Of a stretch of 64,000 nt of DNA, positions 2,432-50,193 are shown one piece after another. The stretch spans positions 41,471 to 105,470 of the forward strand of contig DJRP01000028.1 in the NCBI GenBank assembly GCA_002437815.1, given 5' to 3'. The stretch's first letter is position 1. Each line of letters starts with the position of its first letter. The position numbers were made by a program, and so were the translations under genes. The stretch is from Collinsella sp. UBA6357. GTDB taxonomy: Bacteria > Actinomycetota > Coriobacteriia > Coriobacteriales > Coriobacteriaceae. Below the pieces are notes generated by a model that ran no database searches, was not told the DNA's origin, and saw only the letters and a program-made list of their open reading frames with translations.

Positions 2432-3820
2432 ATGCTCGATTACAATTTGAACGAACGTGGATCCCTTACGCTGTACGAGTATATCTACCAGCGTATACGA
2501 GACGATATCGTCGATGGATCCATCGCTGCGGACGAGCATCTGCCTTCCAAGCGTACGCTTGCCGAACATCTAGCTACCAGTGTGATTACCATCGAGAATG
2601 CATATAGCCAGTTGGTTGCCGAAGGATATGTGTACACGCGACCGCGACAGGGGTTCTATGCAAGCGCCTTGCCCAAGACGCGCAGGGCTAAGCCTCGACA
2701 GGACGATGGCGAGCGGGATTCCTATTCACCGGTGGTTCGGGGGGCGGTGAAGGGCGGTTTACCCGCGCCGGCACCGCTCTCGCCCTCGGCGCTCGATGCG
2801 GCGCGGCTGTGGCAGCGTGCCCTCAGGGCGACGTTGACCTCAGAGGACGAGCGCGAGATCTTCGCTCCCGCTCCGGCCCAGGGCACGGAGCGGCTACGAG
2901 TCGCCATCGCGCGTCACTTGCGCGGTTCGCGCGGCATGAATGTCGATCCCGCGAACATCGTGGTCGGCGCCGGTGCGCAGCTGCTCGATACGATGCTCGT
3001 GCAGCTGCTGGGCCAAGAGCTGACCTATGCGGTCGAAGACCCCGGCTACCTGCGCCTCACGCATATCTACCAGGCAATGGGCTGCGAGGTGCGGCATATT
3101 CCGCTCGATGCCGAAGGTGTTTCTCTCGAGGCGCTTCGTTCGTCGGGCGCAGATGTGCTCCATCTGATGCCCTCGCATCAATATCCCACGGGGCTCGTCA
3201 CGTCGATCGCCCGTCGCTACGCCCTCATGAGCTGGGCTTCCGAGCGCTCGGGCCGCTATCTCATCGAGGATGACTTCGACTGCGAGTTTCGCCTCGCGGG
3301 ACGTCCTATCGCCCCGCTCGTCTCGATCGACGCGGCAGGTTCGGTCATCTACACCAACACGTTTTCGAAGAGCCTGTCCTCGGCGCTACGCTTGGCCTAC
3401 ATGGTGTTGCCGGATAAGCTCATGGCGCAGTTTGACCGCGATTTGGGCTTCTACGCCTCCTCGGTGAGTTCGATCGACCAGATCGCCTTGGCGCGTCTCC
3501 TTGAATCGGGAGAATACGAACGCCATGTGAGCCGTGTACGCAAGCGCGCCCGCGAGGCCCGTGACTGCATCGTGGACGCGGTCAAGCAGATTTGCTCTGA
3601 CGGGTCGATTGAGGTCGAGCATCCCGACGATGGCCTCTATTGCGTGCTTGCCGCCGAGGGTTCCGCGGCCGCCCGCATGACGGCGGATGCCATGCCGGTG
3701 ACACCGCTCGCCGATCATATATGGCGCGCGGAGAGTGCCGGTCCGGCGGACGGAAAGCGGCGTTTTCTGCTGCAGTATGAGCATGCCTCCGCGTTTGCCG
3801 AGGCCCTCCTCGGCGCATAG
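2432..3820 (+). CDS. pdxR: MocR-family regulator PdxR (GntR wHTH fused to a fold-type I aminotransferase-like domain)
   Basis: The N-terminus LYEYIYQRIRDDIVDGSIAADEHLPSKRTLAEHLATSVITIENAYSQLVAEGYVYTRPRQGFY is a GntR HTH. The C-terminal ~350 aa are aminotransferase-like (YTNTFSKSL). It is divergent from pdxST. I prefer the ATG at 2432 (AAGGG RBS) over the track TTG at 2399. Confidence 0.85.
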   Translation: MLDYNLNERGSLTLYEYIYQRIRDDIVDGSIAADEHLPSKRTLAEHLATSVITIENAYSQLVAEGYVYTRPRQGFYASALPKTRRAKPRQDDGERDSYSPVVRGAVKGGLPAPAPLSPSALDAARLWQRALRATLTSEDEREIFAPAPAQGTERLRVAIARHLRGSRGMNVDPANIVVGAGAQLLDTMLVQLLGQELTYAVEDPGYLRLTHIYQAMGCEVRHIPLDAEGVSLEALRSSGADVLHLMPSHQYPTGLVTSIARRYALMSWASERSGRYLIEDDFDCEFRLAGRPIAPLVSIDAAGSVIYTNTFSKSLSSALRLAYMVLPDKLMAQFDRDLGFYASSVSSIDQIALARLLESGEYERHVSRVRKRAREARDCIVDAVKQICSDGSIEVEHPDDGLYCVLAAEGSAAARMTADAMPVTPLADHIWRAESAGPADGKRRFLLQYEHASAFAEALLGA

Positions 3821-15636: not shown

Positions 15637-18369
15637 TTACAGGTCTTCGAGCAGGTCCTCGATAAAGCCCACACGGTAGTTCTTGAAGATGACCTCGCCG
15701 CCGTCCTGGGTGGCATCGAGGTCGACGTCGCCCATGATGCCAAAGTCGTGGTCGCCGTCCTCGTCGGCGAAGATCTGGTGCACGTGCCACACGTGATCGC
15801 TCTTCTCGTCCGATTCGTCGATCGTGAACATCGCCGTCGAGTGAGCATCGCCATCGGTGAGGATTTCCTCATGCTGCTCGTGGTAGGTGTCGAGCGCCTT
15901 TTGCCAGCGCACCTCGCCCATACCCCACTCACTGTCGAGCTCTCCCAGGTCGCGCACGTGTCCGCGCGCGGCAAGCGTCACACGGCGGAAGAGGGCGTTG
16001 CGCACGAGCAGCGTGCATCCGCGGCGGTCGGCCACGACCTCGTCGATGCCCTTGGGCGGAGCGGCGTCGAGCGCGGCGGGGTTGCCGGCGTTCTCCCACT
16101 CGTCGACCAGGCTCGAGTCAACGGAGCGCACCACGAAACCGAGCCAGCTGATGATGTCGTTCAGGCGCTCGTCGCGTTTCTCGATGGGCACGGTACGGTC
16201 GAGAGAACGGTAGGCCTCGGCCAGGTAGCGCAGGAGGATGCCCTCTGAGCGGGCGATGCCGAGCTTTTGGATATAGCCCTTGAAGTCGCTTGCGCTCTCG
16301 AGCATATCGCGCAGGACGCTCTTGGGGGAGAGGCGGTAATCGTTGGCCCAGGGGACCTCTTGGCAGTATCTGTAAAATGCGGCATCGAGCAGGTCCTCGA
16401 GGGGCTTCTCATACGTGACGTCTTGGATGCGCTCGAGACGCTCTTCGTATTCGATGCCGTCCGCCTTCATCTCGGCCATGGCGCGGTCGCGGGCGGCGCG
16501 TTCCTGGGCGCGGAGCACCTGCTTGGGATCCTCGAGCGTGGCCTCGACCATAGAGATGAGGTCCATGGTGTAGGTCTCGCTCTCGGGATCGAGGAGCTCC
16601 AGCGCCGCGAGTAAAAACGGCGAGAGCGGTTGGTCGAGCGCGAAGTCGTCGGGCAGGTCGACGGTGAGGGCATAGTCGATGTCGGGCTCGGTGTCCGCAG
16701 ATGCTCCCGGCGCCGGCGGGACCTCCGTGCGCACGACGACGCCGGAATCGATGAGCGTGGCGAAGACCTCGTCAGCGCGAAGCTCGAGCTTGGTCTTCTC
16801 CTCGGGGGTCTGCAGACTCGTCTCGATCAGGTCGTGCACGCGGGCGCGTGCGTCGCCGCCTTGCTCCACCACGCTGATCACCATGGAATGTGTGATGCGA
16901 AGACGCGGCTTGAGCGTCTCGGGCTGCGTCTCGATCAGGCGCTGATAAGTCTGCTTATTCCAGGTTACAAAGCCCTCGGGTGCCTTTTTCTTCTTGATCT
17001 TGCGGAGCTTCTTGGGGTCGTCGCCCGCTTTGGCCATGAGCTTGGCGTTCTCGATCTCGTGTTCCGGTGCCTCGGCGATGACCATGCCCTCGGTGTCAAA
17101 GCCCGAGCGCCCGGCGCGACCGGCGATCTGGTGGAACTCGCGGGCGCGCAGGCGGCGCATCTTGTATCCGTCGAACTTGGTGAGCGCCGTGAGCAGCACG
17201 GTATGGATGGGCACGTTGATGCCGACGCCGAGCGTGTCGGTGCCGCAGATCACGGGCAGAAGGCCCTGCTGCGCCAAGCGCTCGACGAGCAGGCGGTAGC
17301 GCGGCAGCATGCCGGCGTGGTGCACGCCCACGCCGCAGCCGAGCAGGCGCTTCAGGATCTTGCCGAAGGCGGTCGAGAAGCTCGTGCCGCGGGAAGCCTC
17401 TTTGATGGCCTCGCGCTGCTCCTTAGTCGCGATGCCGAAGTTCGCAAGCGACTGGGCCGTGGAAAGTGCGGCGTCCTGGCTGAAGTGCACGATGTAGAGC
17501 GGGGCCTCGCCGCGGCGCATGGCGAGCTCGACGGTTCCCTCGATGGAGGTCGTGACGTAGTCATAGCTGAGCGGTACGGGGCGCGGCGCGTCGACGACGA
17601 GATCGCAGGCGGCACCGGTGTGCTCCTCGAGCGAGGCCGCGATGGCGGTGACGTCGCCGAGGGTGGCGCTCATGAGCATGAACTGCGTATGGGGAAGCGT
17701 GAGCAGAGGAACCTGCCAGGCCCAACCGCGGTCGGGGTCGGCGAAGTAATGGAACTCGTCCATGGCCACGCAGCCTACATCGGCACCCTCTCCTTCGCGC
17801 AGGGCGTCGTTGGCAAGGATCTCGGCCGTGCAGCAGATCACGGGTGCCTTGGTGTTGATGTGCGTGTCGCCCGTGATCATGCCTACATTGTCGCGGCCGA
17901 GCACCTGGACAAGGTCGAAAAACTTCTCGCTCACGAGCGCCTTGATGGGCGCGGTGTAGTAGCAGCGTTTGCCTTGGGCCATGCCCATGAAGAGCATGCC
18001 GAGTGCGACGAGCGACTTGCCCGATCCCGTGGGGGTGCCCAGGATCACGTGATCGCCGGCTGCGAGGTCCATGAGGGCTTCTTCCTGGTGGTCCCAGAGT
18101 TCGATTCCGCGCTCGGCCGTCCATTCGTAGAAGCGCTCGAACGCCTCGTCGGGGGCGAGCCAAGGCTCGGGCTCGCTGCCGTCCTCGGGCTCCCACCAGG
18201 TGGGGGAGAGGCTCCCGAGCGAGCCGAACTCCGCCTCGGTACCGGTGCCGCCGGCAAAGGAGCTCGCCGCGCCGGCGCCGGTGACGGGTGCTGCGCTCAC
18301 GGCAGAGTTTTGGTCGGTATCGGTTTTGTTTGATGCCATATCGCTGCTTTCTATCGTTTCATCTGTCAT
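15637..18369 (-). CDS. DEAD/DEAH-box SF2 helicase with a long C-terminal DUF3516-like region (actinobacterial Ski2-like type)
   Basis: 910 aa. Motif I is GTPTGSGKS, motif II is MDEFHY, and SAT and QIAGRAGRSG are present. About 400 aa follow the helicase core. Confidence 0.8.
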   Translation of the reverse strand: MTDETIESSDMASNKTDTDQNSAVSAAPVTGAGAASSFAGGTGTEAEFGSLGSLSPTWWEPEDGSEPEPWLAPDEAFERFYEWTAERGIELWDHQEEALMDLAAGDHVILGTPTGSGKSLVALGMLFMGMAQGKRCYYTAPIKALVSEKFFDLVQVLGRDNVGMITGDTHINTKAPVICCTAEILANDALREGEGADVGCVAMDEFHYFADPDRGWAWQVPLLTLPHTQFMLMSATLGDVTAIAASLEEHTGAACDLVVDAPRPVPLSYDYVTTSIEGTVELAMRRGEAPLYIVHFSQDAALSTAQSLANFGIATKEQREAIKEASRGTSFSTAFGKILKRLLGCGVGVHHAGMLPRYRLLVERLAQQGLLPVICGTDTLGVGINVPIHTVLLTALTKFDGYKMRRLRAREFHQIAGRAGRSGFDTEGMVIAEAPEHEIENAKLMAKAGDDPKKLRKIKKKKAPEGFVTWNKQTYQRLIETQPETLKPRLRITHSMVISVVEQGGDARARVHDLIETSLQTPEEKTKLELRADEVFATLIDSGVVVRTEVPPAPGASADTEPDIDYALTVDLPDDFALDQPLSPFLLAALELLDPESETYTMDLISMVEATLEDPKQVLRAQERAARDRAMAEMKADGIEYEERLERIQDVTYEKPLEDLLDAAFYRYCQEVPWANDYRLSPKSVLRDMLESASDFKGYIQKLGIARSEGILLRYLAEAYRSLDRTVPIEKRDERLNDIISWLGFVVRSVDSSLVDEWENAGNPAALDAAPPKGIDEVVADRRGCTLLVRNALFRRVTLAARGHVRDLGELDSEWGMGEVRWQKALDTYHEQHEEILTDGDAHSTAMFTIDESDEKSDHVWHVHQIFADEDGDHDFGIMGDVDLDATQDGGEVIFKNYRVGFIEDLLEDL

Positions 18370-18460
18370 TCATTATGGCGGAGCTCGCGGATGCCGGGCC
18401 GTAATGTCCGAAAATGCCGAATATCGTCGTGTAGGACACCATTACCAACGCTTTGTTTTG

Positions 18461-18582
18461 CGTTATGTGTAGGTTAAATCGGCCAAGCCGACTATACAGG
18501 TATCTCGACAGCATTTTACCTGCGAAAACGTGAGCGAAAGCCATCCTATATCCGGCCTATTTCCTTAGACCTACACATAACG
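18461..18582. repeat. Long-hairpin element copy A (122 bp)
   Basis: Terminal inverted repeats are CGTTATGTGTAGGT (18461-74) and ACCTACACATAACG (18569-82). Inner arms are partly complementary (GCCGACTATA / TATATCCGGC). The conserved centre ACCTGCG lies at 18518-24, exactly mid-element. The element sits 5 nt downstream of the stop of the 18587-19750 gene. Confidence 0.8.
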
Positions 18583-18586
18583 AAGA

Positions 18587-19750
18587 CTATCGTCTCTTTT
18601 GGCGACCTCGATCGCATCTCCAGCGTTCTTGAGTGCCGATTGTTTCCCAGTCGACGAAGATATTTCGCCGTAAATCGAGCTCAGCTTCCTTTTCCGTCGG
18701 CGTCTTGTCGCGAAACTCCATGGATATCTTCTCGAAGATCAGGCGCCTGAGGACATCAAATTGTTGCTGGCTTGATATTTGTTGATACGTGATAAAGACA
18801 ATCTCATAACCCATGGTAGACAGAGCGGTTGCTCTGTCGGCATCCGAGTCTTTAACTCCGCCGACTCCGTGCGAGATGCGCCCTTGACACTCAAGCGCCA
18901 GGTCATGCTCACCGTCCTCGGATGTCAAGTAGATATCGATATAGGCGCGTTTGTTCTTGCATAGTTTTCGAGCGTCGGCACTTAACATGACTTCGTGGTT
19001 GTTTGAGATCGATAAACCCTCCCCACCGCTCGACCTTGGTAAGAACAGCAGCAAAGAGAGCTGTGCCTCGAAGGGGGATGCCGTTACTCCCGAAACCATG
19101 TGGAAGGCGCTTGCGAGACGTTTGTTCCCACGAATGCCTCTCGTCGATTCGATGAATTTGCCAAGCTCATGCAGCTCGACGAGCGGGGCTCGCGACCAGA
19201 GGTTGCTGGGGGTTCCGTCATCGCCGGCGATGCGTTTCCATCCATCGACTCCCTTGGCCAGCTCCTGGCGATACGGGGCAAGGAGCTCCTCTATCGTGTC
19301 GCTCGGGTTGAAGATGGCAAAGGAGCCGCACATCTCATATATCGCCAGCGCGAGGCGTTCCGTCGTAACCGTGCTCGCAAGAGAGAGGAGCGTCATTTCC
19401 GGCGAAGTGACCTTGAAGTCATGCTCGGTTTCGCGTATCGATCCAAAGGGTAGATCGGCGCTGCACACCCTGTGCTTGAAACACTTTGCGTTCGTACGAT
19501 GCTTTGCGTTGGGGACCAGGATGTTGAGGGGAAAGCCTATCGCGTCCGTCAGGGTGAGATTCGAAGTGAGATCGCTGTGGTGGACATTCGATTCATCAAT
19601 CGTGACCATCGGCAGCAGCGAGAGTACCGGGGGTGGAATCCGGTAGTAGTTGAAAGCCGATATGTTGCAAAGCGTAATGTCCATGATGGACATAGCGTAC
19701 CCGCCGAGCGAGCATTCCAAAACGCTGGGGAGGGAGTGACCGTTTGGCAT
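18587..19750 (-). CDS. Orphan protein with a C-terminal DUF559/Vsr-like (PD-(D/E)xK) endonuclease-type domain, in a low-GC patch
   Basis: The C-terminus reads RAYIDIYLTSEDGEHDLALECQGRISHG...DADRATALSTMGYEIVFITYQQI. This fits the DUF559 pattern (D..w....vE.DG..H....D..R...L...G..v.R.t). The upstream part resembles the N-terminal regions that accompany DUF559 in actinobacterial proteins (VTSPEMTLLSLAS, SPFEAQLSLLL). The start is uncertain (ATG 19750, 19693 or 19684) and no clear RBS is visible. Confidence 0.55.
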   Translation of the reverse strand: MPNGHSLPSVLECSLGGYAMSIMDITLCNISAFNYYRIPPPVLSLLPMVTIDESNVHHSDLTSNLTLTDAIGFPLNILVPNAKHRTNAKCFKHRVCSADLPFGSIRETEHDFKVTSPEMTLLSLASTVTTERLALAIYEMCGSFAIFNPSDTIEELLAPYRQELAKGVDGWKRIAGDDGTPSNLWSRAPLVELHELGKFIESTRGIRGNKRLASAFHMVSGVTASPFEAQLSLLLFLPRSSGGEGLSISNNHEVMLSADARKLCKNKRAYIDIYLTSEDGEHDLALECQGRISHGVGGVKDSDADRATALSTMGYEIVFITYQQISSQQQFDVLRRLIFEKISMEFRDKTPTEKEAELDLRRNIFVDWETIGTQERWRCDRGRQKRR

Positions 19751-19834
19751 CGGCTAACGGGGGATACTTGACAACGGGGAGATGACCGCGGCAACGTGGG
19801 CGAAGGGAGCTGATTTTGAGCTGCTCGTTAGCCG
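19751..19834. repeat. 9-bp inverted repeat bracketing the 5-prime region of the orphan gene
   Basis: CGGCTAACG (19751-59) and CGTTAGCCG (19826-34) are separated by 66 nt. The repeat starts immediately upstream of ATG 19750. Confidence 0.5.
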
Positions 19835-19842
19835 GATCACCT

Positions 19843-19964
19843 TGTTATGTGTAGGTTTGTGGCCAACTGCTGAGTATTCATGAAAATGCTAAATCGTTGA
19901 CCTGCGGAAATATAGATCGAACATGGGCCATACCCGAGTAATTCGAATTGACCTACACATAACG
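19843..19964. repeat. Long-hairpin element copy B (122 bp)
   Basis: Terminal inverted repeats are (T)GTTATGTGTAGGT (19843-56) and ACCTACACATAACG (19951-64). The centre ACCTGCG lies at 19900-06. It aligns without gaps to copy A. It lies 40 nt downstream of the trmB stop. Confidence 0.8.
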
Positions 19965-20004
19965 TGAAATAATGTCGAACCAAGCTCGGTTTTGGGCGGC
20001 TTGG

Positions 20005-20850
20005 TTACCTGTTGGACTCCTGTGGAAGCGCGCTTTTGCCTTTACGGGCGCGGTTTATAAAGTTTTCAACGGCCTCTTCCATGCCGAGTGGCACATAGGT
20101 GAGGGAGTCGAGATCCCTCGGTAGGTAGCAGGCGAGGCTTTGCTCCTGTGTGCGTCCCGCGGCGATCTGCTCGTCCGCAGGTTCGGGGCCCGGTGTGGCG
20201 CAGATGCCGTGGACGGTGGCCCCCATCTCGTGGGTGCGGTGCTCATATTCGGTCTCGGGGTGCTCGGGGTGGTCCGCGCGCATGTCGTCACTTTCCCAGA
20301 CCGTCTCGTATCCTGCGGCGGCAAACTGCCCGCGCGCATAGTCGCGCAGGGGTTGGCTGTCCGTGCGGAGCGTCACGGTCGCGCCGACGGCGAGCAGCGG
20401 GCGGTACGACAGGAGCGCGTCGATGTAGACGAGCCGGCGTTTGGCGTGTCGCGCCTTGGGGCACGGCGTGGGAAAGTTGATCGTGATGGCATCGAGCTCA
20501 CCCGGGGCAAACAGCGCCGACAGCGAGGTTGCTCGGCGCGGCAGGACGATGGCGTTCGCGAGCCCCGCCTCGCAGATCTTCTGCGCGGCATAGGCGATGC
20601 AGATGGGCTCTTGATCAATGCCGATAAACAGTGCACGGGGCTCGCGCTGCGCTCTTTCGACAAGATAGGTGCCTTTACCGCATCCAAGATCGAGGTGGAC
20701 GCGGGCAGATGGGGCGTCGCCGATTGCCGCGCAGGCCTCGCGCCAGCGACCGCTATAGCATTCGGGCGTCATTTCGATTGCGCTGGCGTAGCGCTCCAAG
20801 CGCTCTTCGAGCACAAAGTTCTTGGGCGTTCGGACATGTACGGCTCCCAT
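20005..20850 (-). CDS. trmB: tRNA (guanine46-N7)-methyltransferase TrmB-like
   Basis: LDLGCGKGTYLVERAQREPRALFIGID and FPTPCPKARHAKRRL match the TrmB FPDPW..K..HKRR region. An AAGGAG RBS precedes ATG 20850. The track N-terminal extension is rejected. Confidence 0.75.
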   Translation of the reverse strand: MGAVHVRTPKNFVLEERLERYASAIEMTPECYSGRWREACAAIGDAPSARVHLDLGCGKGTYLVERAQREPRALFIGIDQEPICIAYAAQKICEAGLANAIVLPRRATSLSALFAPGELDAITINFPTPCPKARHAKRRLVYIDALLSYRPLLAVGATVTLRTDSQPLRDYARGQFAAAGYETVWESDDMRADHPEHPETEYEHRTHEMGATVHGICATPGPEPADEQIAAGRTQEQSLACYLPRDLDSLTYVPLGMEEAVENFINRARKGKSALPQESNR

Positions 20851-20893
20851 GGGGCTCCTTGTTTGAGTCTGAGTTGGGTGAAGGACAGCGACA

Positions 20894-21832
20894 CTACAGG
20901 CGCTTGAGGATGACGTAGCGGTTGAGATCGCCGGAGCGGCCGTCGGCATGGAAGCGCTCGAGTTCGCGCACAGGCACCTCTCCACTTTTGTAGAACGTTC
21001 GCACGCCACGCACCAGCTCGGTGATCTGCGCATCGTCGAAGTGGTGGCAGTACCGATAAGCGTGCCGATCGTTCTGCCAGCCGATTAAATGGTCGCCGGG
21101 CTCGAACTGCGTGGACTCATACCCCTCGAAAGGGGGTGCGAGCTCGGCGCGGGCCTCGGCGCGGACGGCCTTCTTGGCCATGCGCTCGTCGTTCATGAAC
21201 TCCCAGAAGCTGATGGCGATGACGCCTCCCGGGCGCGTCTGACGCACCAGCGCATCGAGCACACGCACGCGATACTCGCACGACGGCACGTGATGCATGA
21301 ACCCGAAGCACACCGTGATGTCTGCGAGCGGCGCGTCGAAGAGCGTATCGGGCGGGCAGGCGGGATTGAGCTTCATGAGGGCATCGAGGACATCGAGCTC
21401 CTGGAAATGCAAGTTGGGGATACGAAGGGCATGTCCGCGCGCATCGATGGCGAGGTCCTGACAAGAGTCGACGCCATAAAATTCAAGAGGGAACGTCTCG
21501 TCCATCTGTGGCGTATCGCGCGCGCCCTTGGCCGTAAGCAGACCGCCGGAGAGGAAATGCTCGAAGCGCATGTTGCCGCAAGCGAGGTCGAAGACGCGAA
21601 CGGGCCGCTCGATCTTATCGATATCGAGCTGCCTGATCGCGGTGTCCATGGTGCGGATCCATCCGGGCCATGGTGCCTGACGGGTATCCGAGAACGAAGC
21701 GGAATGTTCGCGATAGAACGTATTGTTGAGCTGGATGAGCGATGAGGCGAAATCGCGGTTCACGGCGCTCTGTCCTCCTGGCGGTCGCGTGGTTGCACTG
21801 GCTTCGACCATACTAACGCGTGACGACCGCAC
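20894..21832 (-). CDS. Class I SAM-dependent methyltransferase, Trm9/CmoM-like by motif reading
   Basis: Motif I is VFDLACGNMRF. FGFMHHVPSCEYRVRVLDALVRQTRPGGVIAISFWEF and YRYCHHFDDAQITELV resemble the Trm9 pattern (HH...RR..l.el.RvLkPGG...vW..EQ ... RYYH.F..gEL). The start is either GTG 21832 or ATG 21811. Confidence 0.6.
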   Translation of the reverse strand: MRSSRVSMVEASATTRPPGGQSAVNRDFASSLIQLNNTFYREHSASFSDTRQAPWPGWIRTMDTAIRQLDIDKIERPVRVFDLACGNMRFEHFLSGGLLTAKGARDTPQMDETFPLEFYGVDSCQDLAIDARGHALRIPNLHFQELDVLDALMKLNPACPPDTLFDAPLADITVCFGFMHHVPSCEYRVRVLDALVRQTRPGGVIAISFWEFMNDERMAKKAVRAEARAELAPPFEGYESTQFEPGDHLIGWQNDRHAYRYCHHFDDAQITELVRGVRTFYKSGEVPVRELERFHADGRSGDLNRYVILKRL

Positions 21833-32891: not shown

Positions 32892-34304
32892 CTAAGAGAG
32901 TATGGGGGTGAAACCGAAGACAAGGGTCATGAGCCGCTGGGGCTCCTCGATAGCGGCCGCTATGGTTTGGGCGTCTCGGGCGCGGTCGAACCCGACGAGC
33001 TCGACGGTGCAGGCAACGTCTTCATATGCTAAGACGCGGCGGCGCTGGACCAGCTTGGTACCGTCGAACATCTCGGTCTTGGTCCCATCGCTAGAGGTTT
33101 CATAGAGATGGAGCAACGCTTTGGTAGCACTGTCGCTGACCGAGATTTCCTCGATATCGTCGCTGGCGCCCATGGCGCCGATGATGGTGTAGATCTCGGG
33201 CGCCACGACCTCGCCGGAAGGAAGGTATTCCAGCTGGAATGTCTTGGGTAGCGTGATCAGGGCGCCTTTTCTCTTTGGGCTGGTAGCCCGGACGCCCGTT
33301 GACGAGGGGTCGAGCGACTGTGTCTGATCGGTTGCCACAAATGCGACGAAGTTCTCAACACCCTTACTCGATGGGGATTGATCATCCTGGGCGGCAGCGG
33401 TCGTCTCCAAAGTCTTGCCGCCGTCGGAAACCATGATGGTTTCCTGAGCCGTTTTTGATACGGCAGCCGAAACGCTCGAGGACATCTCGGGTTCGGGAGG
33501 ATTGGCCCTGGCCCTTTCGTCGTCGCTGCCTTTGCTTTCGGTCGTCCGATCGGCGGAACCGATGTTATCGGTTGCATCGGGAACAAGCTCGATCGCCCCG
33601 CATCCGCTCCAGGTCAGTTGCGTAAGCACGGCGTCTGCGGCGATCGACGTCGATTCGCGTCGGGCGCCAACCGTACCTGCATAATTCTGCGCATCTTGTT
33701 GCAGCCCGCTCAGCAACGACGCAAGCCCCGATCGCTCCTTCGTATCGCCTGCATGGGCGATACGAAAGGGGATCGCGCCTCGGGCTGCGGCGGTCGTGCC
33801 GCTCTTATATGCTCGGATATAGGCCGTGAACGCTATATCCGAATCGTCGGTGTCGAGGCAACCGATCGCGATGCCGCCGCCGTTTTCATAGAACGTTGCG
33901 GGCGCGAGGACCACCGTCCCTCCGGCGGATGAATCGACCTCAAGATCTTCGACGGAAAGCTCGAGGTCGCAGACATCCCCGTCGGCATCGATGGCGACGG
34001 CGCTCCAGCGGCAGATGACGCTTCCCGTTTGCATGCCCTTGCTACGAGAGTGACGGTCGATATCCACGACTATCGATCCATCACTTGCGCGTTGCCGTAG
34101 GCAGCCCGCGGTCGTGACCTCTGCATTCTTGAACGTGAACGCCGCCGCATCGATACGGATGATTTCCTCCGAGACGAACGAGTCGTCAGAGGCGGTGGAC
34201 GCGGGCAAAGGTGCCGCCATGGCCGGGGCGGGGTGGACCGCGGGCGTGCCGAGAGCGAGCACGCAACATAGCGTCGCCGCCGCAACGTGAACCTTCGAAG
34301 CCAT
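32892..34304 (-). CDS. Secreted 470-aa protein of unknown function (last gene of the surface operon)
   Basis: The signal peptide is MASKVHVAAATLCCVLALGTPAVHPAPAMA. An AGGAG RBS precedes ATG 34304. I recognised no family. Confidence 0.6.
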   Translation of the reverse strand: MASKVHVAAATLCCVLALGTPAVHPAPAMAAPLPASTASDDSFVSEEIIRIDAAAFTFKNAEVTTAGCLRQRASDGSIVVDIDRHSRSKGMQTGSVICRWSAVAIDADGDVCDLELSVEDLEVDSSAGGTVVLAPATFYENGGGIAIGCLDTDDSDIAFTAYIRAYKSGTTAAARGAIPFRIAHAGDTKERSGLASLLSGLQQDAQNYAGTVGARRESTSIAADAVLTQLTWSGCGAIELVPDATDNIGSADRTTESKGSDDERARANPPEPEMSSSVSAAVSKTAQETIMVSDGGKTLETTAAAQDDQSPSSKGVENFVAFVATDQTQSLDPSSTGVRATSPKRKGALITLPKTFQLEYLPSGEVVAPEIYTIIGAMGASDDIEEISVSDSATKALLHLYETSSDGTKTEMFDGTKLVQRRRVLAYEDVACTVELVGFDRARDAQTIAAAIEEPQRLMTLVFGFTPILS

Positions 34305-49947: not shown

Positions 49948-49975
49948 CTGGCGACAGAAGCCGCATCGTCCTTAA

Positions 49976-50098
49976 GCAAGTGAGTGGACTTTTTGGAGCC
50001 AGCCGAGTATGGTTCACATTCTATTTGACGTTTCCGCAGGTAGGGACGTTTCTATATCTCGGCTTATTCGAGACATTGCGAATAGTCCACTCACTTGC
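49976..50098. repeat. Long-hairpin element copy C (123 bp), opposite orientation, different outer stem
   Basis: Terminal inverted repeats are GCAAGTGAGTGGACT (49976-90) and AGTCCACTCACTTGC (50084-98). Inner arms are GCCGAGTAT / TATATCTCGGC. The centre TTTCCGCAGGT (50031-41) is the reverse complement of the A/B centre ACCTGCGGAAA. It lies 28 nt downstream of the antiporter stop. Confidence 0.8.
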
Positions 50099-50120
50099 AT
50101 AGGAAGACTGCCCAAAGGAC

Positions 50121-50162
50121 GCAAAAGAGGGCGCCGCATCGCAACCATGCGATGCGGCGCCC
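50121..50162 (-). terminator. Rho-independent terminator of hom
   Basis: A perfect 15-bp stem GGGCGCCGCATCGCA (50129-43) / TGCGATGCGGCGCCC (50148-62). The minus-strand reading is followed by CTCTTTTGC. Confidence 0.8.
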
Positions 50163-50193
50163 CTTTCGCGTCGGTTCTGTGGCGAGGAGCTCG

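Follow-up and report, generated by a model that had tools for sequence, protein, structure and literature searches.

We analyzed a 64-kb stretch of the genome of Collinsella sp. UBA6357 (assembly GCA_002437815.1, contig DJRP01000028.1), hereafter called the window, and focused on a module of 1.5 kb located between trmB and a DUF3516 helicase gene. The module consists of a gene with a nuclease-type domain, here designated X, bracketed by two copies (E-A and E-B) of a 122-bp palindromic element, E. Its GC content is 47–58%, compared with 62–68% on both sides. Gene X is an open reading frame (ORF) of 387 aa on the minus strand (18587–19750); the start codon conserved in its family is Met23 at 19684, which gives a protein of 365 aa. 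E-A (18461–18582, plus strand) lies downstream of X and E-B (19843–19964, plus strand) lies upstream, and they are scored at 76.6 and 76.1 bits on the plus strand by the covariance model R1. Comparison with other genomes shows that A and B belong to a dispersed, low-copy family of palindromic intergenic repeats, divided into subfamilies, in Collinsella and other Coriobacteriia.

A preliminary description of the window had located both copies at these positions as 122-bp units that align without gaps, and the coordinates and alignment agree with it. The 5′ ends are (C/T)GTTATGTGTAGGT and the 3′ ends are ACCTACACATAACG, forming perfect terminal inverted repeats (TIRs) of 13–14 bp common to A and B (outer arms at 18461–18474 and 18569–18582 in E-A, and at 19844–19856 and 19951–19964 in E-B). 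The arm sequences GTTATGTGTAGGT and ACCTACACATAAC occur exactly four times in the window, at these four positions, and no further occurrence of the 13-mer was found there with up to two mismatches allowed. The chance expectation is 0.33, and none of 100 shuffled sequences reached four occurrences, so that the shared termini first noticed by inspection are well founded. Besides the arms, each copy contains a pair of short inner boxes, GACTATAC/CTATATCC in A (18490–18497 and 18546–18553) and GAGTATTC/CCATACCC in B (19872–19879 and 19928–19935). The cores are TTACCTGCGAAAACG (18516–18530) and TGACCTGCGGAAATA (19898–19912), and the heptamer ACCTGCG is central in both copies, as had been reported (18518-24 and 19900-06). 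The interiors, estimated earlier as roughly half identical, match at 40 of 93 positions, compared with 23.5 ± 4.2 in shuffles. The DNA outside the two copies does not align, and they are therefore not the product of a duplication that carried the flanks along, a trivial origin that the preliminary description had itself raised. E-A adjoins the 387-aa ORF, 4 nt from its TAG, and E-B lies 40 nt from the TAA of trmB; thus both follow minus-strand stop codons closely, and no T-run follows either of them, in line with the first reading. The proposal that each unit folds into an imperfect hairpin of ~55 bp did not hold. In the symmetric register, only 17 of 47 interior positions in A and 12 of 47 in B form Watson–Crick pairs, which is near chance, and the sole stable feature of the predicted folds is the outer stem of 13–14 bp (z = −4.6 and −3.0). 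A long continuous hairpin was dropped because the position-wise pairing counts against it.

The common plan of the family was derived from 26–30 aligned elements. E elements are palindromic, intergenic, and 115–165 bp in length, and consist of an outer arm, a spacer of ~12–15 nt, the inner box GAGTAGAC, ~22 nt, the asymmetric core TGACCTGCGGTTTTG, ~22 nt, the inner box GTCTACTC, a second spacer, and the other outer arm. Family-wide conservation is seen in the core and inner boxes; the outer arms (13–32 bp), by contrast, are specific to a lineage or subfamily, and the spacers drift freely. GTAG and CTAC are common motifs in the arms as well as in the inner boxes and core. The outer helix comprises 19 pairs, which are 96% paired compared with ~35% in slid controls. 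All 19 pairs have changed on both sides, and 16 of them have no one-sided (G:U-type) change, so the structure-preserving substitutions that the preliminary description had asked to be looked for are found throughout the arms. The orthologous single elements of loci L016, L018, and L053 (L-numbers are labels of the compared loci) differ by three compensated arm substitutions, with L018 as the intermediate. Identity between paired copies is likewise modular: in A and B it is 91% in the arms, 73% in the core, 72% in the inner boxes, and 26% (random) in the spacers, and in L028/L031 the corresponding values are 100%, 87%, 72%, and 33%, while the dS (synonymous divergence) of X for this pair is 1.56. 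The 13-mer arm is identical in the window and in L185 despite only 57% identity of their X proteins. As the arms covary with almost no G:U pairs, the constraint would act at the level of DNA (a hairpin, a cruciform, or symmetric protein sites) and not of RNA. The arms are thus under constraint for their sequence as well as for their complementarity, on both strands, and the aligned copies show modular purifying selection on E at the DNA level.

The element is closely tied to X. Across 82 X-centred loci (671 kb), model R1 found ~45 E elements, all but three of which are directly upstream or downstream of X, and an adjacent E is present in 13 of the 15 X clades across Coriobacteriia. Copies thus exist both in the window and in other Coriobacteriia, which answers the concern that A and B might be the only ones. 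X is flanked by two elements with four identical arms in L007/L013/L014, L185, L012, L187, L008, L015, and L020. In L007/L013/L014, where X is 53% identical to that of the window and has the same trmB–X–helicase context, the flanking arms are CGGTTATAGGTAGGT; in L185 they are CGGTTATGTGTAGGT, and in L012 and L187 they are of the GGTTTCCGGTAGCC type (ACGGTTTCCGGTAGCC in L012). L008 has a different context (PNPOx–X–leuB) and perfect arms of 32 bp. The arm sequence shifts stepwise with the X clade while the four arms of each module stay identical, which is the cognate-repeat pattern of REPtrons (REP, repetitive extragenic palindromic), and the E-X-E modules of different X clades sit at different chromosomal sites. 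The preliminary description was right that a gene lies between the copies, but in calling it an orphan it overlooked a DUF559/MTES_1575 nuclease that is bracketed by these elements family-wide. A homolog of X with 24% identity, annotated as a hypothetical protein, has a 227-nt palindrome 30 nt past its stop codon (L179, 20891–21117 of NZ_OY725717.1; 52-nt arms, 79% complementary), which suggests that the association of gene and palindrome reaches distant relatives.

Several modules depart from the simple arrangement. L015 (915–5775) and L020 (3796–7056) contain three elements in a row, the extra ones bracketing S-adenosylmethionine (SAM)-methyltransferase genes; L015 also holds a 365-aa ORF without a Pfam match. 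The core orientation in these arrays is mixed (forward/reverse/forward in L015 and reverse/reverse/forward in L020). More generally, the orientation of the core relative to X differs among loci; the orthologs L028 and L031 have it in opposite directions, the only case of interior inversion seen. It is stable within clades and within the window strain. Frequent flip-flop inversion of the interior was rejected, as six independent assemblies of the module are 100% identical and 55 solo loci (see below) share one orientation. In L008, the 11-mer TATACGAAGTT precedes both elements (2176–2186 and 3614–3624), and thus the repeated unit outreaches the palindrome on one side. The 11-mer equals part of a loxP arm, presumably by chance.

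The C-terminal domain of X is of the DUF559/MTES_1575 PD-(D/E)XK nuclease type. Residues D272, E287-C-Q289, H294, D303, and R306 are invariant, and the resulting motif D...ECQG..H...D..R agrees with the DUF559/MTES_1575 signature D ... E-x-(D/Q)-G-x-x-H ... D-x-x-R ... G. Among 28 X homologs searched against Pfam, MTES_1575 was found in 24 and DUF559 in 13; the X protein of the window itself has a weak match to REase_MTES_1575 (21.2 bits, below the gathering score of 38.2 bits). Pfam gave no other families, and X does not have the Y1 HUH transposase domain of RAYT proteins. The AlphaFold model of X (pLDDT 86.8) gave weak Foldseek matches in the PDB, none with E ≤ 0.001, and the nucleases among them are all of the PD-(D/E)XK type (TnsA, R2 endonuclease, I-Bth0305I, and Hjc). 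No recognized fold was matched in the PDB by the N-terminal ~245 aa. Searches of X against NCBIfam and PADLOC gave no matches, a profile search of PDB sequences gave a chance match only, and no relatives were found in viral contigs. The ratio of nonsynonymous to synonymous divergence (dN/dS) is 0.10–0.27 in seven pairs and, judged by these ratios, X is a functional gene under purifying selection. All X homologs come from Coriobacteriia, most of them from Collinsella, and species-representative genomes contain at least 582 such loci; the family comprises 510 clusters of 50% identity at E < 1e-30 and 3817 at E < 1e-3. X diverges more than its neighbors, being 50–57% identical where the helicase is 84–88% identical (two loci measured, L007 and L012). 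Collinsella-type X loci are also present on contigs from bins titled Oscillospiraceae, Ruminococcus, or Bacteroidaceae (L017, L021, L023, L028, and L031), and these titles probably reflect binning error, not transfer.

Gene-less copies of E are dispersed in intergenic DNA. An exact-seed search for inverted repeats missed many E copies. Diverged solo elements escaped the covariance model when its default filters were on and were recovered by a core-motif search. With the filters off, R1 detected a third copy in the window, E-C (49974–50100, minus strand; 57.6 bits, E-value 1e-13), a solo element of another subfamily with arms GCAAGTGAGTGGACT at 49976–49990 and 50084–50098 and its core at 50029–50043 on the minus strand. 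It lies between convergent genes for a Na+/H+ exchanger and homoserine dehydrogenase and was overlooked by the search for termini because its arms differ from those of A and B. The arms GCAAGTGAGTGGACT resemble those of a solo element in C. aerofaciens, and arms of the sequence AAGTGAGTRGAC are found at different loci in two species. E-C is followed by a strong GC-rich, bidirectional terminator-like hairpin (50120–50170). The gap between homoserine dehydrogenase and the exchanger is variable (window 49948–50193; L173–L177), with an adh_short or peptidase C1 gene in relatives and nothing but the solo E in the window. An empty allele for E-C was sought via orthologs of homoserine dehydrogenase, but synteny downstream of this gene is not conserved and gave no clean comparison. 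In 291 kb of C. aerofaciens NZ_OY725717.1, there are four solo elements (~1 per 70 kb), and three loci share the arms CATCTRCTACNTTTG. This 899,693-bp sequence (L179–L184) is labeled "plasmid 6" in PLSDB; it carries recA, rho, topoisomerase I, ribosomal proteins, and tRNA synthetases and is evidently a piece of chromosome.

The site between trmB and the helicase gene is polymorphic for the presence of both X and E. X is absent from all of 80 metagenomic loci whose helicases are 93–96% identical to that of the window, which places these loci nearer to the window than L007 and L012, where X is present (helicases 84–88%). Among the 72 loci that span the gap, 17 are empty (93–118 or 196 nt) and 55 have a solo E with arms AAGTGAGTAGACTTTTT inside an extra segment of 207 nt. 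The solo allele has ~65 nt of additional sequence on the left of the element (4690–4754 in L104, and equivalents) and ~15–35 nt on the right, none of which occurs in empty alleles or had a match in the other retrieved sequences. Removal of E-X-E from L185 leaves 103 nt, compared with 94–118 nt in empty alleles. In C. aerofaciens loci, neither blastn nor a profile search found a remnant of X next to the solo element.

The neighboring genes of the module in the window are on the minus strand: the DEAD/DUF3516 helicase gene at 15637–18369 and the trmB-like methyltransferase gene at 20005–21033 (stop codon 20005–20007). Methyltransferase-like genes adjoining the module are trmB and 20894–21832. 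The right junction (18369–18460), between E-A and the helicase start, has a conserved promoter-like box of the helicase, CCGCCATAATG, which also occurs in empty alleles, and the left junction comprises the 40 nt between the trmB stop and E-B (19965–20004), with a small terminator-like hairpin at 19976–19988. A promoter scan of the region gave no sigma-70-like site, and its terminator-like matches are at chance level only. Elsewhere in the window, two short palindromes (33813–33842 and 33739–33766) are scored by the covariance model at 14.7 and 10.1 bits, equally on both strands; by their length, they are not members of the E family.

In REPtrons and TIRtrons, a RAYT or TIRYT gene is flanked by cognate REPs or long TIRs (PMC3733652, PMC8266576). 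Actinomycetota are not among the phyla listed in the survey of GTAG REPs (PMC3733652). The E-X-E module resembles REPtrons in that palindromic repeats enclose a gene present in one copy, further repeats lacking the gene are dispersed between other genes, repeats differ between paralogous modules, modules are mostly inherited vertically, and GTAG/CTAC motifs are frequent in the repeats. It differs in that the bracketed protein is a PD-(D/E)XK nuclease and not an HUH/Y1 transposase. Unlike REPs, which are GTAG-tagged stem-loops of 20–40 bp with copy numbers from tens to thousands, E is 115–165 bp long and has inverted repeats in two tiers together with a conserved core, its copy number is in the tens and not in the hundreds, and its GTAG motifs lie inside the arms and boxes instead of forming an unpaired tag. 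E also shares features with miniature inverted-repeat transposable elements (MITEs). The MITEs Correia/NEMIS of Neisseria and ERIC/IRU of enterobacteria are non-coding sequences of ~100–160 bp that end in inverted repeats and are conserved at the center. Similarly, E is short and non-coding with terminal inverted repeats, occupies intergenic, often co-transcribed positions, shows insertion/deletion polymorphism between strains, and has one subfamily at several unrelated loci. In contrast to MITEs, E has arms that vary by lineage with compensated changes, and it is strongly associated, physically, with one particular gene; no target-site duplication was visible at the copies examined, and no matching insertion sequence with a DDE transposase was seen. 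The only partner with arms matching E is the E-X-E module, and X is not a known transposase.

We tentatively favor, while giving it somewhat less than an even chance, the interpretation that E-X-E is a REPtron- or TIRtron-like module whose hairpin or cruciform ends are the substrate of X. The arms would work as DNA, either folding into hairpins when single-stranded or forming a cruciform, and X would recognize and cut the structured ends of E. Cutting by X might then lead to insertion, copying, or maintenance of the module and, in trans, of gene-less solo elements, in parallel with RAYT or TIRYT proteins acting on the REPs or TIRs that flank their own genes. Recombination between the flanking copies could delete X and leave a solo E behind, so that solo elements may arise either by trans-mobilization or by this route. 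We infer from the comparisons the role of X as the enzyme for E, the hairpin or cruciform nature of its substrate, and the way in which the module would move. The stronger proposal seems unlikely to us: X would found a new kind of DNA-mobilizing enzyme, a DUF559/Vsr-like PD-(D/E)XK nuclease that recognizes palindromic ends in hairpin or cruciform form and moves or copies both E-X-E and gene-less E, giving a REPtron-like system with an entirely different catalytic fold.

A number of observations weigh against the favored interpretation. In the largest X clade (C. aerofaciens), X is intact and constrained while flanking E elements are missing or degenerate downstream of it, and X therefore has a role independent of flanking copies. 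The solo-E and empty alleles at the trmB–helicase site differ by 207 nt and not by the 127-nt element alone. No direct repeat indicative of a target-site duplication is present beside any examined copy, and no filled and empty pair could be aligned at nucleotide resolution; when the joined flanks are compared with empty alleles, the intergenic DNA is too diverged to give a nucleotide-level junction. Copy number is low, at roughly one E per 60–70 kb. The arms of the solo elements in the window and in C. aerofaciens are unlike those flanking any X found here, and no cognate X is seen for these solos. Each X clade is in a conserved context, so movement must be rare, and we know of no stand-alone PD-(D/E)XK transposase.

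Alternatively, E might serve the host as a structural palindrome (for example, a 3′-end insulator, a stabilizer of mRNA ends, or a site for a nucleoid protein binding to the conserved core), with X as an independent selfish or defensive nuclease that does not mobilize E. X, for example as a free-standing homing endonuclease, would then land preferentially beside E or be tolerated only when insulated by E. Every copy is intergenic, mostly just past a stop codon; the core and inner boxes but not the arms are conserved family-wide, as expected for a conserved host factor; and X is under selection without E in its largest clade. Homing endonucleases cut the allele of their own insertion site that lacks the gene; of such behavior X shows presence or absence at one conserved intergenic site, and like homing endonuclease genes it diverges faster than its neighbors. 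Its nuclease fold has a weak similarity to the Vsr-like PD-(D/E)XK homing endonuclease I-Bth0305I (PDB 3r3p). However, the homing endonuclease genes known so far do not have palindromes on their flanks, and X clades occupy many different chromosomal sites. A host role also leaves unexplained the four identical arms beside one X with random spacers between them, as well as the stepwise change of the arms with the X clade. The elements lack T-runs, the variable orientation of the core to neighboring genes argues against a strand-specific role in transcripts, and the absence of E from orthologous gaps of close relatives indicates that it is not needed there. We regard this explanation as possible but rather doubtful. 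Lower still in our estimate is that E represents attC-like or other site-specific recombination sites, with X as one exchangeable cassette and a recombinase encoded elsewhere. The attC sites of integrons and CALIN arrays (clusters of attC sites lacking integron-integrases) are imperfect palindromes in which outer and inner boxes pair around a middle that varies. E is of similar length, has the same tiers of boxes and a variable middle, and keeps structure more than sequence; L015 and L020 form three-element arrays that bracket different genes (X and SAM methyltransferases), and E-C occupies a gap that holds other genes in relatives. On the other hand, the termini in the window, 5′-GTTATGT...ACATAAC-3′, are the reverse of RYYYAAC...GTTRRRY and other subfamilies lack such motifs, the asymmetric cores in L015 and L020 are not co-oriented, and the bracketed gene is nearly always X, unlike the diverse cassettes of integrons. 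In addition, no integron integrase domain was detected by Pfam in the seven ORFs scanned within ~6 kb of the module.

An RNA element of the 3′-untranslated region had been among the candidates of the preliminary description, together with a REP- or MITE-like repeat family and a protein-binding DNA cruciform; E might also be a small RNA, in either case a structured RNA cotranscribed with the gene upstream of it. An RNA would account for the position of both window copies just past stop codons in the same sense, for folds more stable than those of shuffled sequences, and for the covariation of the paired regions. It is nevertheless improbable, given that there is almost no G:U in the 19 covarying pairs, that the orientation to the upstream gene flips between loci (even between the orthologous L028 and L031), and that the arms keep high covariance-model scores on both strands. 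Rfam at permissive thresholds also gave no match on A or B, the single match in 17000–21500 being a chance-level NLPC-P60 elsewhere in that interval. The other two candidates fared better: the repeat family is supported by the extra copies and the compensatory arm changes, and a protein-binding or cruciform DNA is compatible with the strictly Watson–Crick arms and the varying core orientation and is favored by them. The remaining explanation, that A and B are similar by chance or through a simple local duplication, could draw on the restriction of the exact arms to two copies in the window. It is refuted by the shuffles, the unaligned flanks, and the occurrence of the family in many genomes, and we give it practically no weight.

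Our literature search yielded no description of MITE or REP elements in Collinsella, nor of a DUF559-type gene with flanking repeats, and the E family is apparently previously undescribed. Much is known from Proteobacteria about intergenic palindromic repeats and the "domesticated" enzymes that accompany them, whereas a description from Coriobacteriia was not found; Collinsella is an abundant genus of the human gut. The REPtron- or TIRtron-like module proposed here ties a widespread, uncharacterized nuclease family to a defined DNA element and thereby offers a concrete candidate substrate. If X acts on E, the lifestyle of a repeat accompanied by a single-copy enzyme would have been invented independently with a restriction-endonuclease fold, and if X mobilizes E, this would be the first function for part of the large DUF559 family. 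Should E not be a substrate of X, its copies still serve to mark variable loci and strain-level insertions and deletions in Collinsella.

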